From Escherichia phage Esco_phi_B-01, in sequence record OP292222.1: a DNA stretch of 64,000 bases, one strand, 5' to 3'. Below the pieces are notes generated by a model. It did not search any database. It worked only from the letters and a program-made list of their open reading frames with translations, and was not told the DNA's origin. Position 1 is the stretch's first letter, and the number at the start of each line of letters is the position of its first letter. The position numbers and the translations under genes were made by a program. This document shows, piece by piece, positions 2,679-26,816 of this stretch.

Positions 2679-3548
2679 ATGAACATTAAAACACGTAAAG
2701 AATACTCTATATACGACCATGACACGACTCGTCGTATCGCTATCGATCGGCTGGCCGACTTTGGTCATATTTGTAATGGTAATTATACTTATGGTGTAGG
2801 CCGTAAAGGGACTTATATTAGTTCTTTGAATGATTATTGCCGTAGCCCAGCTCATTTATTTGGTGCAACACTACGAGCTAATATTAAAGACCTCTTGGCT
2901 ACTGCAGGACGTATTTCTACGGTTCCTGTTAATATAAAGAATATTAATTTTACGGCTCGTAACCTAGTCATTAATATTCTGCCTGATGGTATTCAAGTTC
3001 GTTTCCGTCCTACTTCAAAAGGTAATAAGGCTCTTCGTGAAGCATTCGAAACCTTATTCAGAGAAGCAATGACTCGTATTAAGGCCGTAGAATCATATAA
3101 AGTTACAACCGATGAATATGCTGATTGTTCTGGACGGGCTGATGCAGTGTATTTTAATGTTAAACTAACTCGTGAATATCTTTTGTCTTATGCCCCTTAT
3201 CAACCCCAACAAAAGGACCCACAAATGGAACGTCGTATCTCTGCAGTATCATGTGACAGCGTAGGCCAGTATGCAGCCTATGACAAATTCAAAACCACAG
3301 CTGTGCCTAGTCCATTCAATTCAGAACCGTATCATTGGAAAATTAGACCTGATAATTCTTTGGTTGTTACTAACCCTACGATGAAACCTATCGAGAAGTA
3401 TCATGAGGACCACCTCCAGGAATCAATCCACCGTTTAAACGGTCAGATCGAAGATGAGAAAAAGAGTATTCAAGACGTATTGATTCGCATCAAGAATATG
3501 GAAATCCAGCGTGACAAGCTTCGCGCGGCAGTATTAGCTCTAAAATAA
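2679..3548 (+). CDS. hypothetical protein (approx 289 aa)
   Basis: ORF; start chosen at first ATG after upstream stop (track start 2655 overlaps previous gene). Confidence 0.5.
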   Translation: MNIKTRKEYSIYDHDTTRRIAIDRLADFGHICNGNYTYGVGRKGTYISSLNDYCRSPAHLFGATLRANIKDLLATAGRISTVPVNIKNINFTARNLVINILPDGIQVRFRPTSKGNKALREAFETLFREAMTRIKAVESYKVTTDEYADCSGRADAVYFNVKLTREYLLSYAPYQPQQKDPQMERRISAVSCDSVGQYAAYDKFKTTAVPSPFNSEPYHWKIRPDNSLVVTNPTMKPIEKYHEDHLQESIHRLNGQIEDEKKSIQDVLIRIKNMEIQRDKLRAAVLALK

Positions 3549-3549
3549 T

Positions 3550-3579
3550 GTTTACATCCAAGGACGGATGGAGTATAAT
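3550..3579 (+). promoter_or_regulatory. early promoter (GTTTAC ... GAGTATAAT)
   Basis: -35/-10 motifs with 18-bp spacer. Confidence 0.55.
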
Positions 3580-3607
3580 CCTTTTATCAACTACTGAGGA
3601 GAATATC

Positions 3608-4618
3608 ATGACTCGTACTGAATACATCAATGCCTTTACTAAGTATATCACTGACAATACCCCTCCATTAACCCCATATATGGTAATAGTTTCTAATATC
3701 AATAAATGGGTAGACCAAATTGATGATGCATTATCGCGCTGTTTCAAAGCTGAAATAGAAAAGATTGCAGGGCGTTTGTTTATTCCTGATATCGTAGATA
3801 CATTTAAAGGTTCTCGACTGCTTTCTCGACTGGTCAATAAGGACATCCTTTCTGAGTTCGGTAAAGAGAAATATCCGGGTTCTAACCATGTTGTTAGCTA
3901 CAAATGGTTTGGTGATACCATAAAAGATTATGTCAAAATTAAAGGTATGGACCCTAGTAGTTTATTTCCGCAACGTTGGGTTAGCGAATTCAAGGCTAAC
4001 TCTGCATTAATTCTCAAAGCGGCCTCTAAAACTATAGTTTCCGGTGATTGTCGTACTATTCACCCGATGGCTAATTGCATGATTAAAACAAATAGTTATA
4101 AAGGAAAAGCTATTATTTCTGTTATTTGGTCGCCTAATAGGAAACCTAAAGATGATGCGGAAGTTGTAAAGTATCAAGATATTGCTTACGATACCTTGAA
4201 TACTATCGAACAAGCCTTAGCTTTGATGGATACAGTAGAGAAATATGAGACCCAAGAAGTTAAACACCACTTAGGCTGGAAAGGATATGAAGTTTTAGTA
4301 ACAGTTCGCGAAATCAAATGGCCTGTTCCAAAAACTGACGCTGAAATTTACCAAGAAAAATGTGAGGAAATTGTGAATACTGATAAAGAGCCTGCTACAT
4401 TAGAAGACTTGATTAACGACTTGAACAGCCCTATCATGGCCCATACACCAATTACTAAATCCAAGTTACCGGAAATCGTTGCCTTAGAAAAAGCGTATAA
4501 AGATGCCCTTGCTATCAACAAAAAACTGACCGGACAATATACCGCTGCCAAGAAACTTTGGGAAGAGTCTACCAATCGTTTAGACCGTCTTGAACAGGCT
4601 CTGGAGCTGTTGAAATGA
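3608..4618 (+). CDS. hypothetical protein (336 aa)
   Basis: ORF; start at ATG preceded by ctGAGGAGaatatc; track start 3548 lies inside promoter. Confidence 0.6.
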   Translation: MTRTEYINAFTKYITDNTPPLTPYMVIVSNINKWVDQIDDALSRCFKAEIEKIAGRLFIPDIVDTFKGSRLLSRLVNKDILSEFGKEKYPGSNHVVSYKWFGDTIKDYVKIKGMDPSSLFPQRWVSEFKANSALILKAASKTIVSGDCRTIHPMANCMIKTNSYKGKAIISVIWSPNRKPKDDAEVVKYQDIAYDTLNTIEQALALMDTVEKYETQEVKHHLGWKGYEVLVTVREIKWPVPKTDAEIYQEKCEEIVNTDKEPATLEDLINDLNSPIMAHTPITKSKLPEIVALEKAYKDALAINKKLTGQYTAAKKLWEESTNRLDRLEQALELLK

Positions 4619-4926
4619 AACAGCGTTTAGCTGAAGATATTGCTTCAGCATCTAATACCGGTTTATTGAAATTTATTAAAGCCGAGGATGTTGAAGTTGA
4701 ATTGGTTGGTAAAATTCATGGTTGTGATGATTATGGTGATGCCGTTAATTGGGATGCAGTAATGGCTATGGTCGCACGACGAGAACAAGCTTCTAAGAAT
4801 GTTCCTAACTGTCCTAAGTGTGGCACAGAACAGGTTCAATTGGTCCATTGGCAAACCAGTAATCTTCGATATAAATGCCGCCATTGCAAACACAAATTTG
4901 AGCGAGACGAAAATGGCAAAGCGTAA
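4615..4926 (+). CDS. zinc-ribbon protein (CPKCG ... CRHCKHKF)
   Basis: ORF; paired CxxC motifs near C-terminus. Confidence 0.55.
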
Positions 4927-5149
4927 AGAATATGTAGAGGCTGCCGATAAGGCAGTCCGCGAACTTACTCTGGCTTATTATAAAGAGCATGGTAAATTTC
5001 CGGACAGTTATTCAGTATTGAAATCTGCTTTAACTCGTTCGTATAATAATATACTATCTGATGTGTATGATTTAAAATACGAACACCTAGAAAAATATGG
5101 AACAGAACTTGACCGTTCTGAAGCATTCAAACAAGTATTAGGAATTTAA
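4913..5149 (+). CDS. hypothetical protein (78 aa)
   Basis: internal ATG of track ORF 4799..5149; overlaps end of upstream gene. Confidence 0.4.
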
Positions 5150-5150
5150 A

Positions 5151-5414
5151 ATGTTTAAAGTTTATGGGTACGATTCAAATATTCACCGTTGTGTTTTCTG
5201 TGATAATGCCAAACGTCTACTTGATGTTAAGAAGCAACCTTACGAATTCATTAACGTGATGCCGGAAAAAGGTGTATTTGATGATGAGAAGATTGCTGAA
5301 CTCTTGGCTGCTCTTGGACGTGAGTCTCAAGTAGGTTTGACCATGCCCCAGGTATTTGCTCCAGACGGAACTTCTATTGGCGGCTTTGACCAACTGCGAG
5401 CATATTTCAAATGA
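5151..5414 (+). CDS. nrdC: NrdC-type thioredoxin/glutaredoxin
   Basis: near-identity recalled to T4 NrdC N-terminus (MFKVYGYDSNIH.C..CDNAKRLL); CxxC active site. Confidence 0.9.
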   Translation: MFKVYGYDSNIHRCVFCDNAKRLLDVKKQPYEFINVMPEKGVFDDEKIAELLAALGRESQVGLTMPQVFAPDGTSIGGFDQLRAYFK

Positions 5415-5567
5415 TTGAATTATCGTTGGGTGTTTTGTATCTTATCATCGGTATTGGTTATGCTAGACCCTAGCTAAATTAGATGATTCCGGTGACTTTT
5501 GTTGGTGGCTGACGTCTATGATTTGTTGGCCTTTATTTCTGGTTGGTGCTTCATTCTGGAACTTTAA

Positions 5568-5876
5568 ATGATTGAATTAAATGAACAGACCATTTTTCTA
5601 GGTGATGGCACTGAAGATGACCTAGAATATAAACTATATGAATATATGGTTTGGCTGGCTAAAGCAGAAGGTATAGACTTTGTTGTAGCTCACCCATATG
5701 GCGAGAACACCGTTGTAATTGGTGGCGTTGCTTATGAAGTCCAATGGCAATACGTCGGGCTCGAATCCGAAGAATTTGAAGAAGATGAGCATGGTGATTG
5801 GCATCCAGTTGGCCCTTGGTATTGGGAAAACGGCGAGCCTGATTTTGAAGTAATTAGTTGGTGGCGTGACCATTAA
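5568..5876 (+). CDS. hypothetical acidic protein (102 aa)
   Basis: ORF. Confidence 0.45.
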   Translation: MIELNEQTIFLGDGTEDDLEYKLYEYMVWLAKAEGIDFVVAHPYGENTVVIGGVAYEVQWQYVGLESEEFEEDEHGDWHPVGPWYWENGEPDFEVISWWRDH

Positions 5877-6165
5877 GCCATGGTATGTCGCTCGGTGGGA
5901 AACTACCGAGCCAGAGGAACCAGTTTACAACGATTCCGAAATAGATTATAATGAACCTTCAAACAATGATTTAATCGATATGGAGTTTGGATATGAGTAC
6001 CAAAATTGAAGTTGGCCGTCATAAAGGCCGTCTGATTGAACATTCTCTTTACGAGTTATCGGATTCGGGTTCTTTACCTGACCTAGAGTCCGATTTGATT
6101 AAAGCTGCAGCCGATTATATTCATTGGCTTGAAGCTCAACTCCGCTTTTCTGATGAGGCCTTCTG

Positions 6166-6468
6166 ATGAATTTATTTGAATTTGAAGGTAAAACTGTTCG
6201 TATTACTAAAGAAGATGTCGACCATTATGTTGACTGGCCTGAATTAAACGGCAATCGCGGTTTTGAGTCAGGCGAGCTCTGTGAAGGTGCTGAAGTTAAA
6301 ATCTTGAAGGTGGAGATTTCTCCGTGGGGCAATCCTGAAATCATTGGCGTAACTGCTATCGAATTCAATGGTAAGGTATACGAATACACTAAAGAAATGT
6401 TTGAAGATACTAAAGCTTCATTCTGGTGTTTTTGGACTAACGATGATAATGAATTTGAGGTCGCATGA
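6166..6468 (+). CDS. hypothetical protein (100 aa)
   Basis: ORF, ATGA overlap with next gene. Confidence 0.5.
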   Translation: MNLFEFEGKTVRITKEDVDHYVDWPELNGNRGFESGELCEGAEVKILKVEISPWGNPEIIGVTAIEFNGKVYEYTKEMFEDTKASFWCFWTNDDNEFEVA

Positions 6469-6650
6469 AAACTGTATTAGTCTATACTGAAAAGTTAAAT
6501 GGTGACAAGGTCTGGAAACTTCTTATCAAAGGAAGTCCTAATGACCAGTTTATGGCTACCTGCGTAGGATTATACACTCGTCCTACCAAAAAGATGATTC
6601 GTCAATTTAAACGGTTACACCGTATGTTTTACGGTACATTTGAAAAATAA
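6465..6650 (+). CDS. hypothetical basic protein (61 aa)
   Basis: ORF. Confidence 0.4.
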   Translation: MKTVLVYTEKLNGDKVWKLLIKGSPNDQFMATCVGLYTRPTKKMIRQFKRLHRMFYGTFEK

Positions 6651-6685
6651 TAAATACCCTTATCTAATAATGGTAAGGGTTTATT

Positions 6686-7159
6686 ATGTTGTTGACCGGC
6701 AAATTATACAAAGAAGAAAAACAAAAACTTTATGATGCACAATGTGGTAAGTGTTTGATTTGTAAACGTGAATTAAACCCTGATGTTCAAAGTAACCACC
6801 TTGACCACGACCATGAATTGAGCGGGCCAAAAGCCGGTAAGGTTCGTGGTTTACTATGTAACCTGTGCAATGCTGCAGAAGGACAAATGAAGCATAAGTT
6901 CAACCGTTCTGGTCTTAAAGGTCAAAACGTTGACTACCTCGAATGGTTAGAGAATTTGCTGGTCTATCTGAAATCTGATTACACTGAAAACAATATCCAT
7001 CCTAATTTCGTTCCTGATAAAACCAAAGAGTTCAGTAGATTAGGTAAGGAAGAAATGATTGCTGAAATGCTTTCACATGGAATGACTTATAATGAATCTG
7101 ACACAAAGAAACAAATGGTCGATTCATTTAAAAAACAACTGAGGAAATCGCTTAAATGA
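6686..7159 (+). CDS. 49: recombination endonuclease VII (Holliday junction resolvase)
   Basis: near-identity recalled to T4 gp49 (MLLTGKLYKEEKQK..., zinc site CxxC/HLDHDH/CNLCN). Confidence 0.92.
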   Translation: MLLTGKLYKEEKQKLYDAQCGKCLICKRELNPDVQSNHLDHDHELSGPKAGKVRGLLCNLCNAAEGQMKHKFNRSGLKGQNVDYLEWLENLLVYLKSDYTENNIHPNFVPDKTKEFSRLGKEEMIAEMLSHGMTYNESDTKKQMVDSFKKQLRKSLK

Positions 7160-7253
7160 TTAATTTTTATGCCTTAACCGAATCTATGAATGATATTATC
7201 CGGCGCATGGGTGTTGAGTATCCTGCCCAATGGTTATTTGTTGTAACTAATAC

Positions 7254-7481
7254 ATGGACTATCGTATGAATAAATTTCGTAATGCTGCTTCTGATATCCT
7301 GGCCAATATTACATTTGTCCTGTTTATTGTGTGCCTTTTAATCCTGGTTATCCCATTTGGATTGCTGTTTGTGATGATTGGTGCGCTGAGTACTGAAAAG
7401 GGTCTTGAAGGGTCTGAGTTCGAAAAACGAATCCAGTCTGTTCATAGTGTTATTTCTAAAATGTTGAAGGTGAAAGAATGA
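7254..7481 (+). CDS. small membrane protein (75 aa)
   Basis: ORF with long hydrophobic segment. Confidence 0.45.
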   Translation: MDYRMNKFRNAASDILANITFVLFIVCLLILVIPFGLLFVMIGALSTEKGLEGSEFEKRIQSVHSVISKMLKVKE

Positions 7482-18802: not shown

Positions 18803-21514
18803 ATGCAAGAATTCTATTTGACAGTCGAACAAATCGGTGATAATATTCTCGAACGTTACATCGATAAAAATGGTAACGAACGTAGTCGTGAAGTTCCTTA
18901 CAAGCCTACAATGTTTATGCATGCCAACCCAGAGCAAGCCGTAAAATATATTGACATCTACGGTAAGGGCTGTGTTAAGAAAGAATTCGATTCAATGCGC
19001 GATGCTTCTCAGTGGATGAAGCGAATGGACGATATGGGTCTCGAAGCCCTTGGTATGGACGACTACAAATTAGCCTATTTGTCTGATACCTATCGTAAAG
19101 AAATCAAGTATGATTCTTCCAAGATTCGTATTGCTAACTTCGACATCGAGGTAACATCTCCTGATGGATTCCCTGAACCTGCCCAGGCTAAACATCCTAT
19201 CGATGCCATTACTCACTACGACTCGATTGACGATAAATTCTATGTATTCGACCTTTTAGTTTCACCTTATGGTACGGTCGAAGAGTGGTCGATTAAAATC
19301 GCTGAGAAACTCCAAGACGAAGGTGGTGACGAAGTTCCACAAGAAATCATTGACAAAATCGTTTATCTTCCGTTTAATTCTGAAGAAGAAATGATGCTTG
19401 AGTATCTGAATTTCTGGCAACAGAAAACTCCTGTGATTTTGACTGGATGGAACGTTGAATCATTTGACGTGCCATACGTTTATAACCGTCTGAAAAATCT
19501 GTTTGGTGAGAACACTGCTAAGCGATTAAGCCCGCATCGTAAGACTCGTGTTAAAGTTATCGAGAATATGTACGGTGTTCGTGAAATTATTACACTGTTC
19601 GGTATTTCTGTTCTGGATTATATCGACCTTTATAAAAAATTCAGCTTTACTAACCAGCCTTCTTATTCTCTGGATTATGTTTCTGAATATGAATTGAAAG
19701 TAGGTAAGTTGAAATATGATGGTCCTATCTCCAAGTTACGTGAGACAAACCACCAACGATATATTTCCTATAACATTATCGACGTATATCGTGTTGTGCA
19801 GATTGATATGAAACGCCAGTTCATTCTTCTTAGTCTGGACATGGGTTATTATGCTAAGATGCAGATTCAGTCAGTGTTCAGTCCAATTAAGACTTGGGAC
19901 GCTATTATCTTTAATAGCCTTAAAGAACAGGGTAAAGTTATTCCTCAGGCCAAATCGCATGCGGTTCAACCTTATCCAGGTGCTTTCGTTAAGGAACCTA
20001 TTCCTAACGCGTACAAATATGTAATGAGTTTCGACCTTACATCTCTGTACCCAAGTATCATTCGACAAGTGAATATAAGCCCAGAGACCATCGCAGGCAC
20101 ATTCGCCAACGCACCGATACATGAATATATTGCCGGAACTGCTCCGCGTCCTAGCGACACCTACAGTTGCTCTCCTAACGGCATGATGTACTATAAAGAC
20201 CGTGATGGTGTGATTCCTACAGAAATCACGAAGGTGTTCTTACAACGTAAAGAACATAAAGGTTATATGCTCGCAGCTCAACGTAATGGTGAGTTAATTA
20301 AAGAAGCATTAGAAAATCCTAATCCATCTGTTGATAGTCCACTGGATATCGATTATCGTTTCGACTTCTCTGACGAAATCAAAGCCCAGATTAAAAAATT
20401 GTCAGCATCTTCTTTAAAAGAAATGTTGTTCAAAGCCGAACGTACTGAAGTCGCAGGTATGACTGCTCAGATTAACCGTAAGTTGCTTATCAACTCCCTT
20501 TATGGTGCACTTGGTAACGTATGGTTCCGTTACTATGACCTCAGGAACGCAACTGCAATCACATTGTTTGGTCAAATGGCCCTCCAATGGATTGAACGTA
20601 AGGTTAACGAATATCTGAATAGCGTATGTAAGACCGAAAACCAGAAGTTCGTGCTCTATGGTGATACCGACTCCATTTATGTTAAGGCCGATGCAATCAT
20701 CAATAAAGTAGGCGAAGATAAATTCCGTGATACTAACCACTGGGTTGACTTCTTAGATAAATTTGCACGTGAACGTATGGAACCAGCTATTGATGCAGGC
20801 TTCCGTGAGATGTGTGAATACATGAACAATAAACAGCACTTGATGTTCATGGACCGAGAAGCTATCGCAGGTCCTCCACTTGGTTCTAAAGGTCTTGGTG
20901 GATTCTGGACAGGCAAGAAACGTTATGCACTGAACGTTTGGGACATGGAAGGTACTCGTTATGCCGAACCACACTTGAAAATCATGGGTCTCGAAACTCA
21001 GAAATCAAGTACACCTAAAGCGGTTCAGAAAGCACTGAAAGAATGTATCCGTCGTATGCTTCAAGAAGGCGAGGCCTCTTTGCAAGAGTATTTCAAACAG
21101 TTTAATAAGGAATTTAACGAATTAGACTATGTAAGCATTGCTGCAGTATCCAGTGCTAACAACATCGAGAAATATAATGAAGGTGGTTTCCCTGGTTCTA
21201 AATGCCCGTATCACATCAAAGGTTGCTTAGCTTACATGCGTGCTTCTGCTGGTGATTTGACTATGCCTCGTATCGTTGATGGTGAAAAGGTATATGTACT
21301 GCCACTTAAAGAAGGCAACCCGTTCGGTGAAGCTTGTATGGCATGGCCGTCAGGTATTGAACTTCCGATTCAGATTCGTGACCAAGTCCTCCGTTGGATG
21401 GACTACAACGTACTGTTCCAAAAGACCTTTATCAAACCCCTGACCGGTTTTACTGAGTCTGCTAAAATCGACTACGAGAAAAAAGCAACATTATTTGACA
21501 TGTTTGACTTTTAA
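18803..21514 (+). CDS. 43: DNA polymerase gp43 (family B, with 3'-5' exonuclease)
   Basis: Exo I FDIEV, motif A DLTSLYPSII, motif C YGDTDS; N-terminus MQEFYLTVEQIGDNI matches T4/RB69-type gp43; start taken at ATG after SD aagga (track ORF starts upstream). Confidence 0.97.
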   Translation: MQEFYLTVEQIGDNILERYIDKNGNERSREVPYKPTMFMHANPEQAVKYIDIYGKGCVKKEFDSMRDASQWMKRMDDMGLEALGMDDYKLAYLSDTYRKEIKYDSSKIRIANFDIEVTSPDGFPEPAQAKHPIDAITHYDSIDDKFYVFDLLVSPYGTVEEWSIKIAEKLQDEGGDEVPQEIIDKIVYLPFNSEEEMMLEYLNFWQQKTPVILTGWNVESFDVPYVYNRLKNLFGENTAKRLSPHRKTRVKVIENMYGVREIITLFGISVLDYIDLYKKFSFTNQPSYSLDYVSEYELKVGKLKYDGPISKLRETNHQRYISYNIIDVYRVVQIDMKRQFILLSLDMGYYAKMQIQSVFSPIKTWDAIIFNSLKEQGKVIPQAKSHAVQPYPGAFVKEPIPNAYKYVMSFDLTSLYPSIIRQVNISPETIAGTFANAPIHEYIAGTAPRPSDTYSCSPNGMMYYKDRDGVIPTEITKVFLQRKEHKGYMLAAQRNGELIKEALENPNPSVDSPLDIDYRFDFSDEIKAQIKKLSASSLKEMLFKAERTEVAGMTAQINRKLLINSLYGALGNVWFRYYDLRNATAITLFGQMALQWIERKVNEYLNSVCKTENQKFVLYGDTDSIYVKADAIINKVGEDKFRDTNHWVDFLDKFARERMEPAIDAGFREMCEYMNNKQHLMFMDREAIAGPPLGSKGLGGFWTGKKRYALNVWDMEGTRYAEPHLKIMGLETQKSSTPKAVQKALKECIRRMLQEGEASLQEYFKQFNKEFNELDYVSIAAVSSANNIEKYNEGGFPGSKCPYHIKGCLAYMRASAGDLTMPRIVDGEKVYVLPLKEGNPFGEACMAWPSGIELPIQIRDQVLRWMDYNVLFQKTFIKPLTGFTESAKIDYEKKATLFDMFDF

Positions 21515-21576: not shown

Positions 21577-21813
21577 ATGGAAGCTTTAATCGTTAGTGCT
21601 GGTGTTTTAGGATTCGGTTCTCTGGCTATTATGTTCATTGGTTACTTTTTACCATGGATTCTAGCTCTTTTGCGAGGCACCCGTAGCAATGTCGGAATCT
21701 TCTTCCTTAATCTCTTGTTAGGATGGACGATGATTGGTTGGGTAGTGGCTTTAATCTGGGCCATCGTCGCTGAACGTAAATCAAACGCACAAATCATTAT
21801 CGTTAAACAATGA
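21577..21813 (+). CDS. imm: superinfection immunity membrane protein Imm
   Basis: two hydrophobic helices; position downstream of 43 as in T4. Confidence 0.8.
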   Translation: MEALIVSAGVLGFGSLAIMFIGYFLPWILALLRGTRSNVGIFFLNLLLGWTMIGWVVALIWAIVAERKSNAQIIIVKQ

Positions 21814-21947
21814 AGATAATTATTTTATTTCTTATAATGACTGCCTTTACCGTTTATTGGGCAGTGGCAATTCCTCCAATGATTCCAACATTAATCATAG
21901 GATGGATTATTCTTATAGCACAAATTAAGTATAACTGTTTTAATTGA
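21810..21947 (+). CDS. small hydrophobic peptide (45 aa)
   Basis: ATGA overlap with imm stop; entirely hydrophobic. Confidence 0.35.
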   Translation: MKIIILFLIMTAFTVYWAVAIPPMIPTLIIGWIILIAQIKYNCFN

Positions 21948-21954
21948 GGATATT

Positions 21955-22455
21955 ATGAAAAAGTTAATTATCGCAATGAGTATGCTCCTATCAGGTTGCG
22001 CGGTCCAATACGGTGATGCAGTTTCGGCTGATGAAGTTGGTAAAGCTCGTATTGCAGCTGAACAGAAACAATTCGACGGCGAAATGAAATTCCGTGCCGG
22101 TTCTGGACTTGTGTATACCCGAGCTAATAATCAATGTGGTAATAACTGTGCAAAATATGCTCAAAGGGAAATCGAATTCCAACGTGAACAAGAGTCTAAG
22201 CGTGAAGAGGTACTAGCCAAACACCAGGCAGAAATGAAGCGCCAAGATGATTTGTACAAAAAGCAGAAACTGTATTCTATGTGTGTAAACCATATCAATC
22301 TACAGATTTCTGTCCATGAGGCTCGTTATTACGAAATGCTCGAAACCGAGAGCTTCGATAAAGCTCGTGATTATAAGAAACAAATCAACAAGCTTAAGAC
22401 CAAAGTGCCTGCTGCAGTAGAACAGTGCATGGAATACGGTAAAGATAAGATTTAA
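21955..22455 (+). CDS. predicted lipoprotein (signal peptide with lipobox LLSGC), coiled-coil rich
   Basis: N-terminal MKKLIIAMSMLLSGC. Confidence 0.6.
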   Translation: MKKLIIAMSMLLSGCAVQYGDAVSADEVGKARIAAEQKQFDGEMKFRAGSGLVYTRANNQCGNNCAKYAQREIEFQREQESKREEVLAKHQAEMKRQDDLYKKQKLYSMCVNHINLQISVHEARYYEMLETESFDKARDYKKQINKLKTKVPAAVEQCMEYGKDKI

Positions 22456-22515
22456 GCAATAGAAATTTATTAAAAATAGTGTATAATGTACCTACATTCA
22501 CTTGAGGAACAGATA

Positions 22516-24189
22516 ATGAAAAAGGTTGTTATTTTAGGCGCAGGTCTTGGCTCACGGTTGTATCCAATTACTAACGAAATCCCGAAGGTATTGGTTAACT
22601 ATAAACAACATACGGTATTAAAGCATTTGTATGATTTGTATAGTAACCAATCAGATGAAATTATTCTGGTTATTCACAGCAAATTTAACGACCTCGTTAA
22701 AGGCTATATTAAATCCATTAACATGATTACTGGTGATAAGCCTAAATTCACTATTCGTAACGTTGATGTTGCTAATGGTTCAGCTCATGCAATCGATTGC
22801 ATTGCCGAAGATATCATTGGCCATAATGTCCTGTTTAACTGGTGTGACATCATTCCTATCGGTCATAAAGTTGAATGGGGTAACGACTACTGTTATACCT
22901 ATGGAACTGACTGTCGTTTTACATTTGAAGAACCGTACTTACGTGAAATTGGTACTGGTGGCGGTGTAGTTGGTTTGTATCAGGTAGCCAATTGGACAGG
23001 TTTCGACCGTTCTAATTATGGTGAAGACCTTGCTGATAACCTGGATTCAATGGTCTATTTGACCGAACGTAAACTGGATTTTGTAGTTGATGTCGGTGAC
23101 AAATTGAAACTGGCTAAGGCCCATGAAGAATCTGAAATTAACCGTGAATTTAATAAATTAGAATTCACCGAGAATCTGGCTATTAAAGTACCAACTAACG
23201 AATTAGGTAAAGAAATTCAATCTAAAGAAATCAATTGGTATAATTCTATTGATTCTGAATTCGTTCCTAGCATTGTAGACTTTTCTCCAGGCGAATTCAT
23301 TAAAATGGAACGTATCTTTGGTCGAACCATGGCAGATGCCTACCGGTTTATGTCCAAAGAAACTAAAGTCCTCATGGTTTATAAGGTCATTAGTGCATTA
23401 CGTTCATTTGGTGGAACTATTGATAACCCGTCCGATGAGCAATGGTATTCCGATGTTAAGAAAGAAGTATTGGACAAGGTCCTTATTCGTAATGCTTCTA
23501 TTGCTGGATTGATTGAAGGCTTTGCTCCACAGGGCATTACCCATGTTAACGATTTCAAAGTAGGCGACCCTGAAAAACTTCTTCGCCATGCACTAGAAAT
23601 TCTGTCTGAACATAAAGAACCGTACCAACTTATTCATGGCGACCCGCACTACAGTAATATTATGCTGTCGGACGAAGGTGATATTAAAATCATCGACCCA
23701 CGTGGTTATTTCGGTAATAGTTCTAAAGGCCCTGCGATTTATGATGAAGCTAAGGTGCTTTATTCTATCGATGGCTATGACAAATTTAACTCAGACCCTC
23801 TATGGGGCGGATTAACTCGTAACGGAACTCGTGTATTCGTTGATATCGAAAAGATTATGCCTTTAGACGATATCCCTATGTGCACATTTAAGCACAAGCT
23901 CTGGATTGCTGTTATTTGGATGGCTCTGGCAGGTTACTTTAAGAATAACCCTCTGAAAGCTCTAGGTGCTTATTATAACGGTTTGTACCAACTGAGTGTG
24001 CTGCTGAAGCGGCATCCTCGTAAGCGTAAGCTTATTACGGGTGAATTTGTCGATGAAGTTCGTGACCCTATTACGGCTCAAATTATTACTCGTTGTCCTG
24101 ATAAGTGGGTTTTGCTTGACCAGGAAACTGGTGTAAAATATAAACCTACAGGTTCTACTGAACTCCACAAACAATGGAAGAAAATTTAA
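22516..24189 (+). CDS. bifunctional nucleotidyltransferase / protein-kinase-like phosphotransferase
   Basis: N-terminus ILGAGLGSRLYPIT...PKVLV (sugar-phosphate nucleotidyltransferase G-x-G-x-R signature); C-terminus HGDPHYSNIML ... IKIIDPRGYFG (Brenner HxDxxxxN + downstream D, APH/choline-kinase-like); start at ATG after SD gaggaa. Confidence 0.75.
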   Translation: MKKVVILGAGLGSRLYPITNEIPKVLVNYKQHTVLKHLYDLYSNQSDEIILVIHSKFNDLVKGYIKSINMITGDKPKFTIRNVDVANGSAHAIDCIAEDIIGHNVLFNWCDIIPIGHKVEWGNDYCYTYGTDCRFTFEEPYLREIGTGGGVVGLYQVANWTGFDRSNYGEDLADNLDSMVYLTERKLDFVVDVGDKLKLAKAHEESEINREFNKLEFTENLAIKVPTNELGKEIQSKEINWYNSIDSEFVPSIVDFSPGEFIKMERIFGRTMADAYRFMSKETKVLMVYKVISALRSFGGTIDNPSDEQWYSDVKKEVLDKVLIRNASIAGLIEGFAPQGITHVNDFKVGDPEKLLRHALEILSEHKEPYQLIHGDPHYSNIMLSDEGDIKIIDPRGYFGNSSKGPAIYDEAKVLYSIDGYDKFNSDPLWGGLTRNGTRVFVDIEKIMPLDDIPMCTFKHKLWIAVIWMALAGYFKNNPLKALGAYYNGLYQLSVLLKRHPRKRKLITGEFVDEVRDPITAQIITRCPDKWVLLDQETGVKYKPTGSTELHKQWKKI

Positions 24190-24572
24190 TGTCGTATCGA
24201 GTAGAAAATAAGCCACATTTATGTTTTGATATCGATAACACAATCACGATTTGGAACCATGACCGTGATTATGAGAACTTTAAACCGGACACCGAAATGG
24301 TGTCCATGATTAATAAGCTTTATGATGAAGGGTACGAGATTACATTGTTCACCGCGCGTGGCATGACTTCATGTGGCCCAGGTCGAATCTTGGTTGAAGT
24401 AGTTCCTGCCTTGGTTAAGAACCTTGAAAAAATTGGATTGAAATATCACAATTTGCTTACACATAAGCCGAGTTATACTTTTATCATCGATGACCGAGCA
24501 ATCCGTCCTGACCACTTTAAAGAAATGGTTCGTGAAGGAACTCTTGATGGTTATAAGGCCTATCATCCATGA
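24189..24572 (+). CDS. small HAD-superfamily phosphatase
   Basis: motif I FDIDNTIT (DxDxT), motif II LFTARG, motif IV IIDDR; alternative start 24174. Confidence 0.7.
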   Translation: MSYRVENKPHLCFDIDNTITIWNHDRDYENFKPDTEMVSMINKLYDEGYEITLFTARGMTSCGPGRILVEVVPALVKNLEKIGLKYHNLLTHKPSYTFIIDDRAIRPDHFKEMVREGTLDGYKAYHP

Positions 24573-25105
24573 ATCCAAAAATCATTGTTATAGACGGCCC
24601 GGATAATTCCGGGAAGTCCACTTTAATTAAAAATCTGTTATCCAATAAGAAATACCGCCTTATTGATTTTCCTAAAAAGATTAATGGCAAGTGTATTTCA
24701 TTAGGAACTGATAACGATAAGGCTTTAGTTGAAACTCTGTATAAGTTTTTAGACCCTAATTTCGTTTATATCCTTGACCGTGGTTATCCAAGTAATATTG
24801 TTTACTCAGGATTCCTTCGTGGTGAAATGGACCCTTATGTAGAACTGGAAGATTGGAAAGGGTTTAAATCTGAATTTAACGTTATCGAGGTTATTTTAAC
24901 TCGCAACCCATTAGACGAAGACTTCGAAGACGACCTTATTAAATTAACCGAAGATGAGTTCAACCTAACTATCCGGCAATACGAAACATGTTTTGAAAAC
25001 GTGTTTAAAATCTTAAATCATGACGGCCATAATAATTTGCTTAATGTTGATATGGTAGAATTAAAACGTCTGAACGAATATATTGAAAATAAGGTGAATA
25101 AATGA
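24569..25105 (+). CDS. thymidylate-kinase-like P-loop NMP kinase
   Basis: P-loop IVIDGPDNSGKST and DRGY..S..Y motif resembling Tmk DR(Y/H) region. Confidence 0.65.
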   Translation: MNPKIIVIDGPDNSGKSTLIKNLLSNKKYRLIDFPKKINGKCISLGTDNDKALVETLYKFLDPNFVYILDRGYPSNIVYSGFLRGEMDPYVELEDWKGFKSEFNVIEVILTRNPLDEDFEDDLIKLTEDEFNLTIRQYETCFENVFKILNHDGHNNLLNVDMVELKRLNEYIENKVNK

Positions 25106-25800
25106 AACACATTACCGCTGTTAGTTTTGAAAATGCATTTAAACAAATGAACGAAGAAATCCTGGAAGCTCCACAGTTTGCAGTTGATTCTCGTATCGGA
25201 CGTTGTTATGAAATTGGTTCTGCTTCGGTAGAAGTACTGGATGCAAGCACCTATAAATTCACCGACCCACGTATTAATCGTATTAGTTATGAATATGCCG
25301 AATCCTTTTGGAAATTTATGATTTCTGGTGGTACTGACGCTGCCGAAGCATTTAAGGAATACCCTAATGTTGCTAAGTTCATTGATAAGCCGAAAAGTGA
25401 CGTATTGCCTGCAAACTTCAACACTTTCTATGGACCTCGAATTGTGGCCCAACTCCCAGCCCTACTTAAAGAGCTTAAAGAAAAGGCTAACTCGCGAAGA
25501 GTTGTGTTCCAGATTCTCCAAGAACAAGACCAAGCCCTCCTTGATTCTGACGAATCCTTAGAATATCCGTGTACCGATTCGGTAACGTATTATATTCGTG
25601 ACGGACGTTTGTATGCACACACCCATATGCGTTCACAGAACTGCGCTGTTGTTATGCAGCTGGATTTCTATCTGCAGGGTAAACTGATGGCATTTATTGC
25701 TGAACAGTGTGGTGTCGGTTTAGGTACATATTCCCACACCATGGTAAGTGCACACGTGTTTGAACGCGATTTTGACTACGTCCGAGGTTTCCTGAAATGA
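25102..25800 (+). CDS. 42: deoxycytidylate hydroxymethylase (thymidylate synthase superfamily)
   Basis: SRR, catalytic Cys in PCTDS, YYIRDG, MRSQN, and Asp in QLDFY at the position that confers cytosine specificity in T4 gp42; Glu/Trp in AESFWKF. Confidence 0.82.
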   Translation: MKHITAVSFENAFKQMNEEILEAPQFAVDSRIGRCYEIGSASVEVLDASTYKFTDPRINRISYEYAESFWKFMISGGTDAAEAFKEYPNVAKFIDKPKSDVLPANFNTFYGPRIVAQLPALLKELKEKANSRRVVFQILQEQDQALLDSDESLEYPCTDSVTYYIRDGRLYAHTHMRSQNCAVVMQLDFYLQGKLMAFIAEQCGVGLGTYSHTMVSAHVFERDFDYVRGFLK

Positions 25801-26690
25801 GTTTGTTTATCGTTCCTATTTTCAGTATGCGTAGTTACGAAACAGGTGAATATGCCGTCCTTAAGGACGGCAATTTTCAACTCCATTTAAATCGTGCTCG
25901 TCCAGGTGATTATCTGGCTTATCCTAGAAATTCGAGCGATATCAAAGAATGCATTGAATTATTCCCGGAACTGAATTTCGTACCACTTTGGTATAAAGAA
26001 AATGCTTATGAAACCCGTAAACATTTCTGGTCTGAAAATGAGTTTGTAGTCGATTCACTAATCGAATACTACGATTGCTCAGGACTGGTAACTGATATCA
26101 CCGGTTATGATGGTGCTCACACTGTACAATTCAACTTTAATATCACAATGGACCCTGAAGTTCCTCGTTATTATATCGACGAGTTCATTGATATTGATGT
26201 GGCTTCAGTTGAACGTTCACTTTATACTACAGTCCTGAATCAATGCCAGAAAGACGTCCTGGTGTCACGAGGTGCATCCTCTGATAAGATTTTTGTAGAC
26301 CAAAAGGTAATTAATCCTGCAGTAATTGAGCGTTACTCTGAAGGTCTAGCGCCTATTAAAATTGATGGTATTTTCCATCCATTCCGTATTTCGGATAAGT
26401 GCTATCAATTCGAAAGAGTTGTAGACCAAGCTGCCGCTGAAGGTGCTCGTCTTTATATCACTGACCCGAATGATTCATTTAAGCGTGAAGACTATCGTCC
26501 TGATGTAGAGATTATTAAATTCAAACCGAGTAAGGTTGAATATTATCAAATTCTGAAATCAAGACCACATATCATTTATCATGAGAACCCAGGTTTAGTA
26601 TTCCATCCTGGTCTGGCTGAATTCATTTATTTCGGTGCCAATATTCATTCTGAATACGAAATGCCACGTTATGAGGACGTAGTATGCTAG
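25797..26690 (+). CDS. hypothetical protein (297 aa) occupying the beta-glucosyltransferase slot between 42 and uvsX
   Basis: ORF; no recognisable motif; position only. Confidence 0.55.
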   Translation: MSLFIVPIFSMRSYETGEYAVLKDGNFQLHLNRARPGDYLAYPRNSSDIKECIELFPELNFVPLWYKENAYETRKHFWSENEFVVDSLIEYYDCSGLVTDITGYDGAHTVQFNFNITMDPEVPRYYIDEFIDIDVASVERSLYTTVLNQCQKDVLVSRGASSDKIFVDQKVINPAVIERYSEGLAPIKIDGIFHPFRISDKCYQFERVVDQAAAEGARLYITDPNDSFKREDYRPDVEIIKFKPSKVEYYQILKSRPHIIYHENPGLVFHPGLAEFIYFGANIHSEYEMPRYEDVVC

Positions 26691-26816
26691 GTCCTCTATT
26701 GCTTTTTATAGGTTTGTTATTATTCTCTTTCGGAGCCTTGCTATTACTAGTGTGGCTCGAGAAACGAGAAGTTCGGAAGATAGTCGATAAGGCTATCAAC
26801 CGAGGAATTAAGTAAT
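26685..26816 (+). CDS. small membrane peptide (43 aa)
   Basis: hydrophobic ORF overlapping upstream stop. Confidence 0.35.

Follow-up and report, generated by a model that had tools for sequence, protein, structure and literature searches.

A HAD phosphatase gene and a Tmk-like kinase gene in the predicted arabinosyl-5-hydroxycytosine DNA-modification cluster of Escherichia phage Esco_phi_B-01

What do two small overlapping genes, lying between a fusion enzyme and a thymidylate-synthase homologue, contribute to Escherichia phage Esco_phi_B-01? The window analysed here is a stretch of 64,000 nucleotides from sequence record OP292222.1, and the two genes, which encode a HAD-type protein and a thymidylate kinase (Tmk)-like protein, occupy positions 24174-25105 on the plus strand. 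A preliminary description, made from the letters alone, had reported both open reading frames (ORFs), their characteristic motifs and the overlaps with the stop codons of their neighbours, all of which are present in the sequence. Our analysis places the two genes, almost certainly, in the cluster for arabinosyl-5-hydroxycytosine DNA modification. The scheme that best explains them overall, reasonably likely in our judgement, would have the phosphatase serve the sugar branch of that pathway and the kinase its base branch. The modification system itself is not new, having been described in the literature between 2018 and 2026.

The modification cluster and its setting

The window phage is a JS98-like Dhakavirus, the window segment being 98.6% identical to Escherichia phage JS98 (Dhakavirus, Straboviridae), and the cluster is flanked by DNA polymerase gene 43 and uvsX. 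Five plus-strand genes follow one another head to tail, with junctions that read, in order, TAATG, ATGA, ATGA and ATGA. The stop codon of the fusion gene (TAA, 24187-24189) shares bases with the ATG of the HAD gene at 24189, the HAD stop codon (TGA, 24570-24572) with the kinase ATG at 24569 and the kinase stop codon (25103-25105) with the ATG of the thymidylate-synthase homologue at 25102, while the last of these genes shares an ATGA with a phrog_3891 gene starting at 25797. Overlapping junctions are common in this type of genome, accounting for 7 of 25 in the JS98 annotation of the region, so that the coupling is real but not strong evidence by itself. The modification cluster contributes four of the seven, one after another, and a run of this length is seen there only. 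The annotators of JS98 labelled orf42, orf41, orf40, orf39 and orf38 as RB69 orf052c-, orf051c-, orf045c-, orf048c- and orf047c-like, respectively, and RefSeq names two of the cluster genes 'phosphoheptose isomerase' and 'thymidylate kinase'.

The chemistry to which these genes would belong is known from other phages. Lee et al. (NAR 2026, PMC13326640) showed that arabinosylated 5-hydroxycytosine takes the place of cytosine in RB69 and in Acinetobacter phage DLP3, a base that had been taken since 2018 for arabosyl-hydroxymethylcytosine (PMC6024577). There, the thymidylate-synthase homologue is a flavin-binding synthase of 5-hydroxy-deoxycytidine monophosphate (5-hydroxy-dCMP), marked by the combination of D169N, N177D and L143E; the RB69 gp1-type deoxynucleoside monophosphate (dNMP) kinase turns 5-hydroxy-dCMP into the diphosphate in vitro; and synthase and gp1-type kinase, expressed alone, suffice for the incorporation of 5-hydroxy-dC into DNA (PMC13326640). 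Dhakaviruses are among the genera listed with a syntenic cluster in the same work, and RB69p045 and RB69p051 were already presumed to be modification genes in a 2021 survey (PMC8056088).

Related loci were collected in a search seeded with a 10-sequence alignment of the kinase. Among 25 T4-like loci on viral contigs, 23 carry the full cluster of fusion gene, HAD gene, N169 synthase homologue and glycosyltransferase gene. The suggestion of the preliminary description that the two genes form one functional unit is upheld, the unit being a known modification cluster. Of the two exceptions, one is a 4.4-kb fragment with glycosyltransferase and kinase only, the other Morganella phage MP1 (see below). 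The usual gene order in the T4-like loci is fusion-HAD-...-synthase-glycosyltransferase-kinase, and that in Dhakavirus, Klebsiella and Proteus phages is fusion-HAD-kinase-(gp50-like)-synthase-glycosyltransferase. Ratios of non-synonymous to synonymous substitution rates (dN/dS) are 0.04-0.15 for the HAD gene in comparison with other Dhakaviruses. For the kinase gene they are 0.04-0.07 among Dhakaviruses, equally low values being found for the synthase homologue and the glycosyltransferase. Both are real genes, more than chance ORFs.

The phosphatase and the sugar branch

The ORF of the HAD protein, with its motifs FDIDNTIT, LFTARG and IIDDR, extends over 24174-24572 (132 aa), and from an internal ATG at 24189 it encodes 127 aa. 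The internal start is the better one, since homologues have 119-128 aa, the orthologue in phage dhabil is annotated with 127 aa and a GGAAG stands 9-13 nt upstream; nothing resembling a Shine-Dalgarno sequence precedes the ATG at 24174. Pfam yields HAD matches only, all of them sub-threshold. A phmmer search of the PDB retrieves 9iqw with an e-value of 9.7e-53, followed by 1xpj at 5e-12. The AlphaFold2 model of the protein (pLDDT, the predicted local distance difference test score, 85.5) leads to the same two entries in Foldseek: 9iqw comes first, with an e-value of 8e-17, 61-62% identity over the whole length and a TM-score of 0.84, then 1xpj, and GmhB, HisB-N and the T4 Pnkp phosphatase rank far lower. 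The title of 9iqw, released on 2025-07-16, is 'phage HY126 encoded D-arabinose 1,5-diphosphate phosphatase AfhF'.

All four HAD motifs (DxDxT, T/S, K, DD) are in place. An alignment of 23 sequences shows no change at D14, D16, R57, K93, D101 or D102 and hardly any at T18 and T55. The gene adjoins an AfhE-like fusion gene through the TAATG overlap, and the two are usually adjacent in the 23 complete T4-like loci as well. Judged by sequence and context, the product of 24189-24572 is very probably an AfhF-type D-arabinose 1,5-bisphosphate phosphatase, that is an orthologue of the D-arabinofuranose 1,5-bisphosphate 5-phosphatase AfhF, which agrees with the earlier proposal that it might trim a sugar phosphate. 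Like AfhF of HY126 (orthologues RB69 gp51 and DLP3 gp81), it has a small cap-less HAD fold, the catalytic motifs and a seat beside an AfhE-like fusion. It differs from AfhF in belonging to another genus, Dhakavirus, and in that its gene overlaps a Tmk-like kinase gene rather than a synthase homologue or gp50-like gene. The database name 'capsule biosynthesis' stems from a match to TIGR01689 ('capsule biosynthesis phosphatase') that remains below threshold, and the name 'phosphoheptose isomerase' is a misnomer.

What is reported of the HY126 enzymes comes from He et al. 2026, as summarized in PMC13326640: arabinose 5-phosphate is phosphorylated by AfhE, which at a later step makes UDP-arabinose, and AfhF removes the 5-phosphate from arabinofuranose 1,5-bisphosphate in a Mg-dependent reaction. 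RB69 gp52:53 is equated with AfhE in the same source. The window counterpart of AfhE is a fusion of a sugar-1-phosphate nucleotidylyltransferase with an APH-fold kinase (22516-24189, plus strand, the ORF opening at 22486; 557 or 567 aa), with Pfam matches to NTP_transferase (3.4e-8) and APH (9.6e-6) and a match to phrog_4098 that begins at residue 11; the PDB search found no close solved structure for it. The start at 22516, giving the 557-aa form, is the probable one: a GAGGA Shine-Dalgarno sequence precedes this ATG and JS98 orf42 is annotated from the same position. A promoter-like site of sigma-70 type (TAGAAA-16-TATAAT, 22460-22487, plus strand, 10 of 12 consensus matches) was picked up by a consensus scan as a candidate only, the number of sites in the promoter and terminator scan of the region not exceeding shuffle expectation; the site ends at 22487, and its use would rule out the ATG at 22486 as the start of the fusion gene.

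Transferred to the window, these activities suggest the following route. D-arabinose 5-phosphate, probably supplied by the host enzymes KdsD and GutQ, would be phosphorylated at C1 by the C-terminal APH-fold domain of the fusion enzyme. The 127-aa HAD protein, on the strength of its 61-62% identity to AfhF and its identical context, would convert the resulting arabinofuranose 1,5-bisphosphate to arabinofuranose 1-phosphate, from which the N-terminal nucleotidyltransferase domain of the fusion would make UDP-arabinofuranose for the downstream glycosyltransferase. Such a branch would copy the logic of the ADP-heptose route (GmhA, HldE, GmhB), in which an isomerase is followed by an anomeric kinase, a HAD protein that removes the distal phosphate and a bifunctional nucleotidyl transfer step. 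GmhB, the D,D-heptose 1,7-bisphosphate phosphatase of that route, differs from the window protein in its context of heptose and ADP in place of pentose and UDP, shares only 13-15% identity with it and belongs to another family below the level of the HAD superfamily; GmhB-like folds (3l8h, 4pnh, 2gmw) are weakly similar to the HAD model (Foldseek e-values 7e-4 to 1e-2).

The last gene of the cluster (25797-26690, plus strand, 297 aa) encodes the glycosyltransferase, an orthologue of RB69 gp46:47 and the probable first DNA arabinosyltransferase. It matches phrog_3891 at 3e-159, and finds no match in Pfam or among PDB sequences; JS98 orf38 bears the label 'RB69 orf047c-like'. Its synteny with the thymidylate-synthase homologue holds in 23 of the 25 T4-like loci, in phage Thanatos-2 and, there at 26% identity, in Rhizobium phage RL2RES.

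Three components of related clusters were not found in the 64-kb window: a SIS-domain arabinose-5-phosphate isomerase (about 210 aa), an RB69 gp50-like protein (386-391 aa) and homologues of the second and third glycosyltransferases of Acinetobacter phages. Isomerase and gp50-like protein are both present in Mosigvirus-type clusters. In the phage records, the isomerase occurs in 137 Escherichia phages, compared with 176 for the kinase and 176 for the synthase homologue, and the ten genera in which the isomerase is most frequent do not include Klebsiella and Proteus phages, which are among the top ten for the kinase. KdsD and GutQ are established sources of arabinose 5-phosphate in Escherichia coli metabolism. 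Because the isomerase is absent from the window and its genus counts are lower, Dhakavirus-type clusters probably draw arabinose 5-phosphate from these host enzymes, and the Dhakavirus version would be a minimal cluster that lacks an arabinose-5-phosphate isomerase of its own. The missing further glycosyltransferases perhaps mean that only mono-arabinosylation takes place.

Some small ORFs border the cluster. Upstream, window positions 21577-22455 hold Imm-like small membrane-protein ORFs of 78 and 45 aa, and one lipoprotein-like ORF of 166 aa (phrog_1754, signal MKKLIIAMSMLLSGC); downstream, the stop codon of the glycosyltransferase gene shares bases (ATGCTAG) with a 43-aa hydrophobic ORF (26684-26815).

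The synthase homologue and the kinase family

The preliminary description had taken the gene that follows the kinase for gp42, the dCMP hydroxymethylase of T4, a claim which does not hold. In E. coli ThyA numbering, the 232-aa product of 25102-25800 (plus strand) has E143, C146, R166, S167, N169 and D177, whereas T4 gp42, in a sequence verified against PDB entry 1b49, has D143, D169 and D177 at the corresponding positions. The protein matches PDB entries 9iqu, 9iqc and 9ir2 with an e-value of 2e-125 and about 80% identity, and reaches T4 gp42 (1b49) in phmmer with only 1.5e-4. These entries are probably structures of the HY126 hydroxylase, since they are numbered beside the AfhF entry 9iqw and a crystal structure of that hydroxylase is mentioned by Lee et al. 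(PMC13326640). With tblastn the homologue was found in 410 of 50,697 phage records, no Tequatrovirus being among the matches listed. We therefore reject the gp42-type identity, in view of N169 in place of D169 and of the close match to 9iqu and 9iqc beside the weak one to gp42. By its sequence the neighbour is a flavin-dependent 5-hydroxy-dCMP synthase, so that the nucleotide concerned would be 5-hydroxy-dCMP and not hydroxymethyl-dCMP. Many database records still label genes of the type at 25102-25800 thymidylate synthase or dCMP hydroxymethylase.

The kinase gene (24569-25105, plus strand) encodes a P-loop nucleotide kinase of 178 aa with the thymidylate kinase fold, containing IVIDGPDNSGKST and DRGYPSNIVY. 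In Pfam and NCBIfam it has P-loop-level matches only, none above threshold: the score is 15.6 bits against PF02223, with a cut-off of 27, and 18.3 bits against TIGR00041, with a cut-off of 83.25. In PHROGs it belongs to phrog_761. When 1.84 billion representative sequences were searched exhaustively, only 63 relatives came up, which makes this a small, phage-centred family; a word-indexed protein search gave 9 close homologues. K16, D70 and R71 are invariant in the family alignment, G10, D12, G15, Y79 and Y138 nearly so, and an acidic motif, DFxDDLIxL, is conserved.

The AlphaFold2 model of the kinase (pLDDT 95.7) finds its fold matches in 4dwj and 2axp, those given in PMC13326640 being 4s35 and 3kb2 (YorR). 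A sequence search of the PDB returned no close solved structure, the best hit being YorR at an e-value of 0.065. The protein keeps the P-loop aspartate and the DRxxxSxxxY spacing of Tmk, and its P-loop and DR(Y/H) motif are set in a Tmk fold. The fold classes first proposed for the two proteins are confirmed. Profile comparison with Staphylococcus aureus Tmk (sequence verified) gave a probability of 96.8%, and aligned D70 and R71 with D91 and R92, and Y79 with Y100. Of F66, R70 and Q101, which we take to be the thymine-recognising residues of S. aureus Tmk, Q101 aligns with Ser80 and the F66/R70 segment has no counterpart in the kinase family. The window kinase is also some 25 residues shorter than Tmk (PF02223; S. 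aureus 4dwj). It is thus Tmk-like in fold, and by family criteria not a thymidylate kinase.

Its nearest described relatives are RB69 gp45, DLP3 gp78 and RL38J1 gp214, to which it is orthologous (JS98 note; 38-42% identity) and with which it shares Tmk-like fold matches and the cluster. The order of genes differs: in the window the HAD gene precedes the kinase and the synthase homologue follows it, and elsewhere the kinase stands after the glycosyltransferase. In Table 1 of PMC13326640 these proteins are entered as 'nucleotide kinase', without experiment; RL38J1 carries hexoses (PMC13326640). With T4 gp1 no homology was detected beyond the P-loop. Kinship with the 5-hydroxymethyluracil DNA kinase (5-HMUDK, phage M6 gp54) was considered and rejected, because hhalign spans only 29 P-loop columns, and the C-terminal domain of long kinase fusions (see below) is no relative of the phage M6 aGPT-Pplase, to which it shows no similarity. 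A 90%-identical copy of the kinase in Escherichia phage vB_EcoM_ESCO10 (OM386655.1, 10693-11226) lies under features annotated as rIIB and rIIA, which points to a mis-annotation or a rearranged record.

Possible substrates of the kinase

The genomic company of the kinase suggests what it may act on. By tblastn it was found in 343 phage records, with counts per genus that nearly match those of the synthase homologue; T4-like phages without the cluster were not seen among these matches, and all matches listed come from cluster-carrying genera. A hidden Markov model of the family adds weak members directly 3' of the pair of N169 synthase homologue and glycosyltransferase in Rhizobium phage RL2RES (3.7e-6) and Agrobacterium phage Atu_ph04 (1.7e-4). 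These Pootjesviridae thus have the trio of synthase (N169), glycosyltransferase and kinase in the absence of the arabinose genes, which places the kinase with the base branch rather than the sugar branch. The 52 more distant relatives on viral contigs form 25 clusters at 50% identity. In 18 of these a gene of the thymidylate-synthase family lies no more than 8 kb away, 17 times with the dCMP-specifying D177. In ten clusters this gene overlaps the kinase gene or is at most 15 nt away. Among the synthase-family proteins, hydroxymethylase-like (D143/D169/D177), methylase-like (L143/D177) and other signatures occur. One relative of the kinase is fused to an N-terminal MazG/PRA-PH pyrophosphohydrolase domain (Pfam 1.4e-13), which matches the enzyme class that makes dCMP from dCTP.

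Three further arrangements were seen. On contig IMGVR_UViG_3300028840_000981 (7566-10845) the MazG/PRA-PH-kinase fusion, an S-adenosylmethionine (SAM)-dependent methyltransferase with a weak O-methyltransferase match, an E143/N169/D177 synthase homologue and a dCMP deaminase stand in a row, a putative route to a methylated 5-hydroxycytosine (5-methoxycytosine) that may be made at the nucleotide level. Several distant kinases (L044, L048, L054, L055, L057 and L062, of about 300-320 aa, and P0041 and P0043) have a C-terminal domain of the uracil-DNA glycosylase (UDG) superfamily (Pfam 5e-7 in L055) or of HhH-GPD type (7.5e-6 in P0043), and are directly followed by a hydroxymethylase-like (D143/D169/D177) synthase homologue. 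RL2RES, a member of a phage family unrelated to T4, has a module at 3132-7272 that comprises a YfbR-like 5'-deoxynucleotidase, a gp1-like dNMP kinase, a small hydrolase, the N169 synthase homologue, the glycosyltransferase and the weak Tmk-like kinase, so that both types of kinase flank the synthase homologue.

On account of these associations the kinase would be a nucleotide-pool partner of dCMP-modifying synthase homologues. In the base branch, the synthase homologue would convert dCMP to 5-hydroxy-dCMP, an activity shown for the enzymes of RB69 (gp48), DLP3 (gp80) and HY126. Alongside the gene 1 dNMP kinase, the 178-aa kinase would then most likely make the diphosphate from 5-hydroxy-dCMP or from a similar dCMP with a substituent at position 5. 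Phosphorylation of a modified dCMP is the role of gp1 in T4. The assignment as a 5-modified-dCMP kinase, drawn from genomic association, is tentative, though quite possible. It keeps one half of the earlier idea that the kinase may phosphorylate hydroxymethyl-dCMP: a modified dCMP fits the associations, the base does not, being 5-hydroxycytosine. A T4-type gene 1 elsewhere in the genome, a point on which the preliminary description had left the matter, is present in the 98.6%-identical JS98 (73517-74278) in canonical form; we therefore reject the kinase as a gp1 substitute. A gp1-type kinase is encoded in Morganella phage MP1 as well, and in RL2RES the gp1-like gene lies two genes upstream of the synthase homologue.

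The first alternative is that the kinase is a general nucleotide-pool enzyme (a dTMP, dCMP or UMP kinase) that travels with the replication and nucleotide genes and has no link to a modified base. Its fold and motifs are indeed generic for Tmk-like and dNK-like proteins, public databases call it 'thymidylate kinase', and MP1 keeps it with none of the modification genes. Against this stand the thymine-reading positions, of which Q101 is replaced by Ser80 and the F66/R70 segment is lacking, the scores below the Pfam and TIGRFAM thresholds for Tmk, the near-perfect co-occurrence with the N169 synthase homologue, the D177 synthase homologues that adjoin its relatives, and the restriction of the 343 matches, as listed, to genera with the cluster. 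We consider such a role unlikely.

The substrate of the kinase might, secondly, be a nucleotide that already bears its decoration, for example arabinosyl-5-hydroxy-dCMP; sugar addition would then begin at the mononucleotide stage, and the bulky product would be beyond gp1. This would explain why a second kinase is kept beside gp1, and would suit the conserved acidic DFxDD motif, the trio of synthase, glycosyltransferase and kinase shared by T4-like phages and Pootjesviridae, and the metagenomic row in which kinase, SAM methyltransferase and N169 synthase homologue are neighbours. However, most distant relatives adjoin a synthase homologue with no glycosyltransferase, MP1 has the kinase and no glycosyltransferase at all, and glycosylation in T-even phages is, according to the textbooks, post-replicative. 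The work on RB69 and DLP3 can be read both ways: Lee et al. could not decide if it is the mononucleotide or the DNA that receives the first arabinose, and found single glycosyltransferases inactive on 5-hydroxycytosine DNA in vitro, but the polymerase route via 5-hydroxy-dCTP works, synthase and gp1-type kinase being enough (PMC13326640). On balance a decorated substrate seems improbable; if true, part of phage DNA glycosylation would be pre-replicative, with methyl instead of arabinose in the metagenomic relative.

More improbable still is an action on something other than a free nucleotide, be it an arabinose-branch sugar phosphate, the flavin of the hydroxylase or, as for 5-hydroxymethyluracil DNA kinases, a base in DNA: the position of the gene directly 3' of the sugar-branch genes and the fusions of some relatives to base-flipping-type domains (UDG superfamily, HhH-GPD) speak for it, but the likeness to the phage M6 enzyme is limited to the P-loop, Rhizobium and Agrobacterium phages have the kinase and no arabinose genes, the P-loop aspartate and DR motif match nucleotide-binding features of Tmk, the MazG fusion points to the nucleotide pool and the 1-kinase step on arabinose 5-phosphate is already covered by the fusion enzyme (PMC13326640).

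Several points weigh against the scheme that we prefer, with a 5-modified-dCMP kinase in the base branch and an AfhF-type phosphatase in the sugar branch. The gp1-type kinase already handles 5-hydroxy-dCMP in RB69 (PMC13326640) and JS98 keeps gene 1, so a second kinase looks redundant, yet it is strongly selected. Morganella phage vB_MmoM_MP1 (Gualtarvirus, NC_031020) has a full-length kinase alone between the polymerase gene and uvsX (20500-21030), and in the 133 of its 163 kb examined, genes for a D177 synthase homologue, a glycosyltransferase, the HAD protein and the fusion enzyme were all absent; the kinase should therefore have a use independent of 5-hydroxycytosine. The two types of kinase near the synthase homologue of RL2RES suggest distinct roles. 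In the literature searched, which did not extend to He et al. 2026 and Mahler et al. 2025, we found no experiment on the kinase; the database names for its cluster include no 'Afh' name, and the transposon study that bears on essentiality in Bas46 was found in the literature with no gene-level result for the cluster. In the sugar branch, the substrate predicted for the HAD protein is that of an orthologue at 62% identity, and the host supply of arabinose 5-phosphate is deduced from an absence and from genus counts.

The coexistence with a gp1-type kinase, the strong purifying selection and the solitary occurrence in MP1 together suggest that the role of the kinase is not simply redundant with that of gp1. 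Beside gp1, these phages retain this further nucleotide kinase under strong conservation, and the association of its family with dCMP-specific synthase homologues provides a testable hypothesis for the substrate. For the HAD gene, the annotations 'phosphoheptose isomerase' and 'capsule biosynthesis protein' should be corrected to arabinose-bisphosphate phosphatase. The base that the cluster would make, arabinosyl-5-hydroxycytosine, shields T4-like phages from restriction enzymes and CRISPR-Cas, and is relevant to phage therapy.

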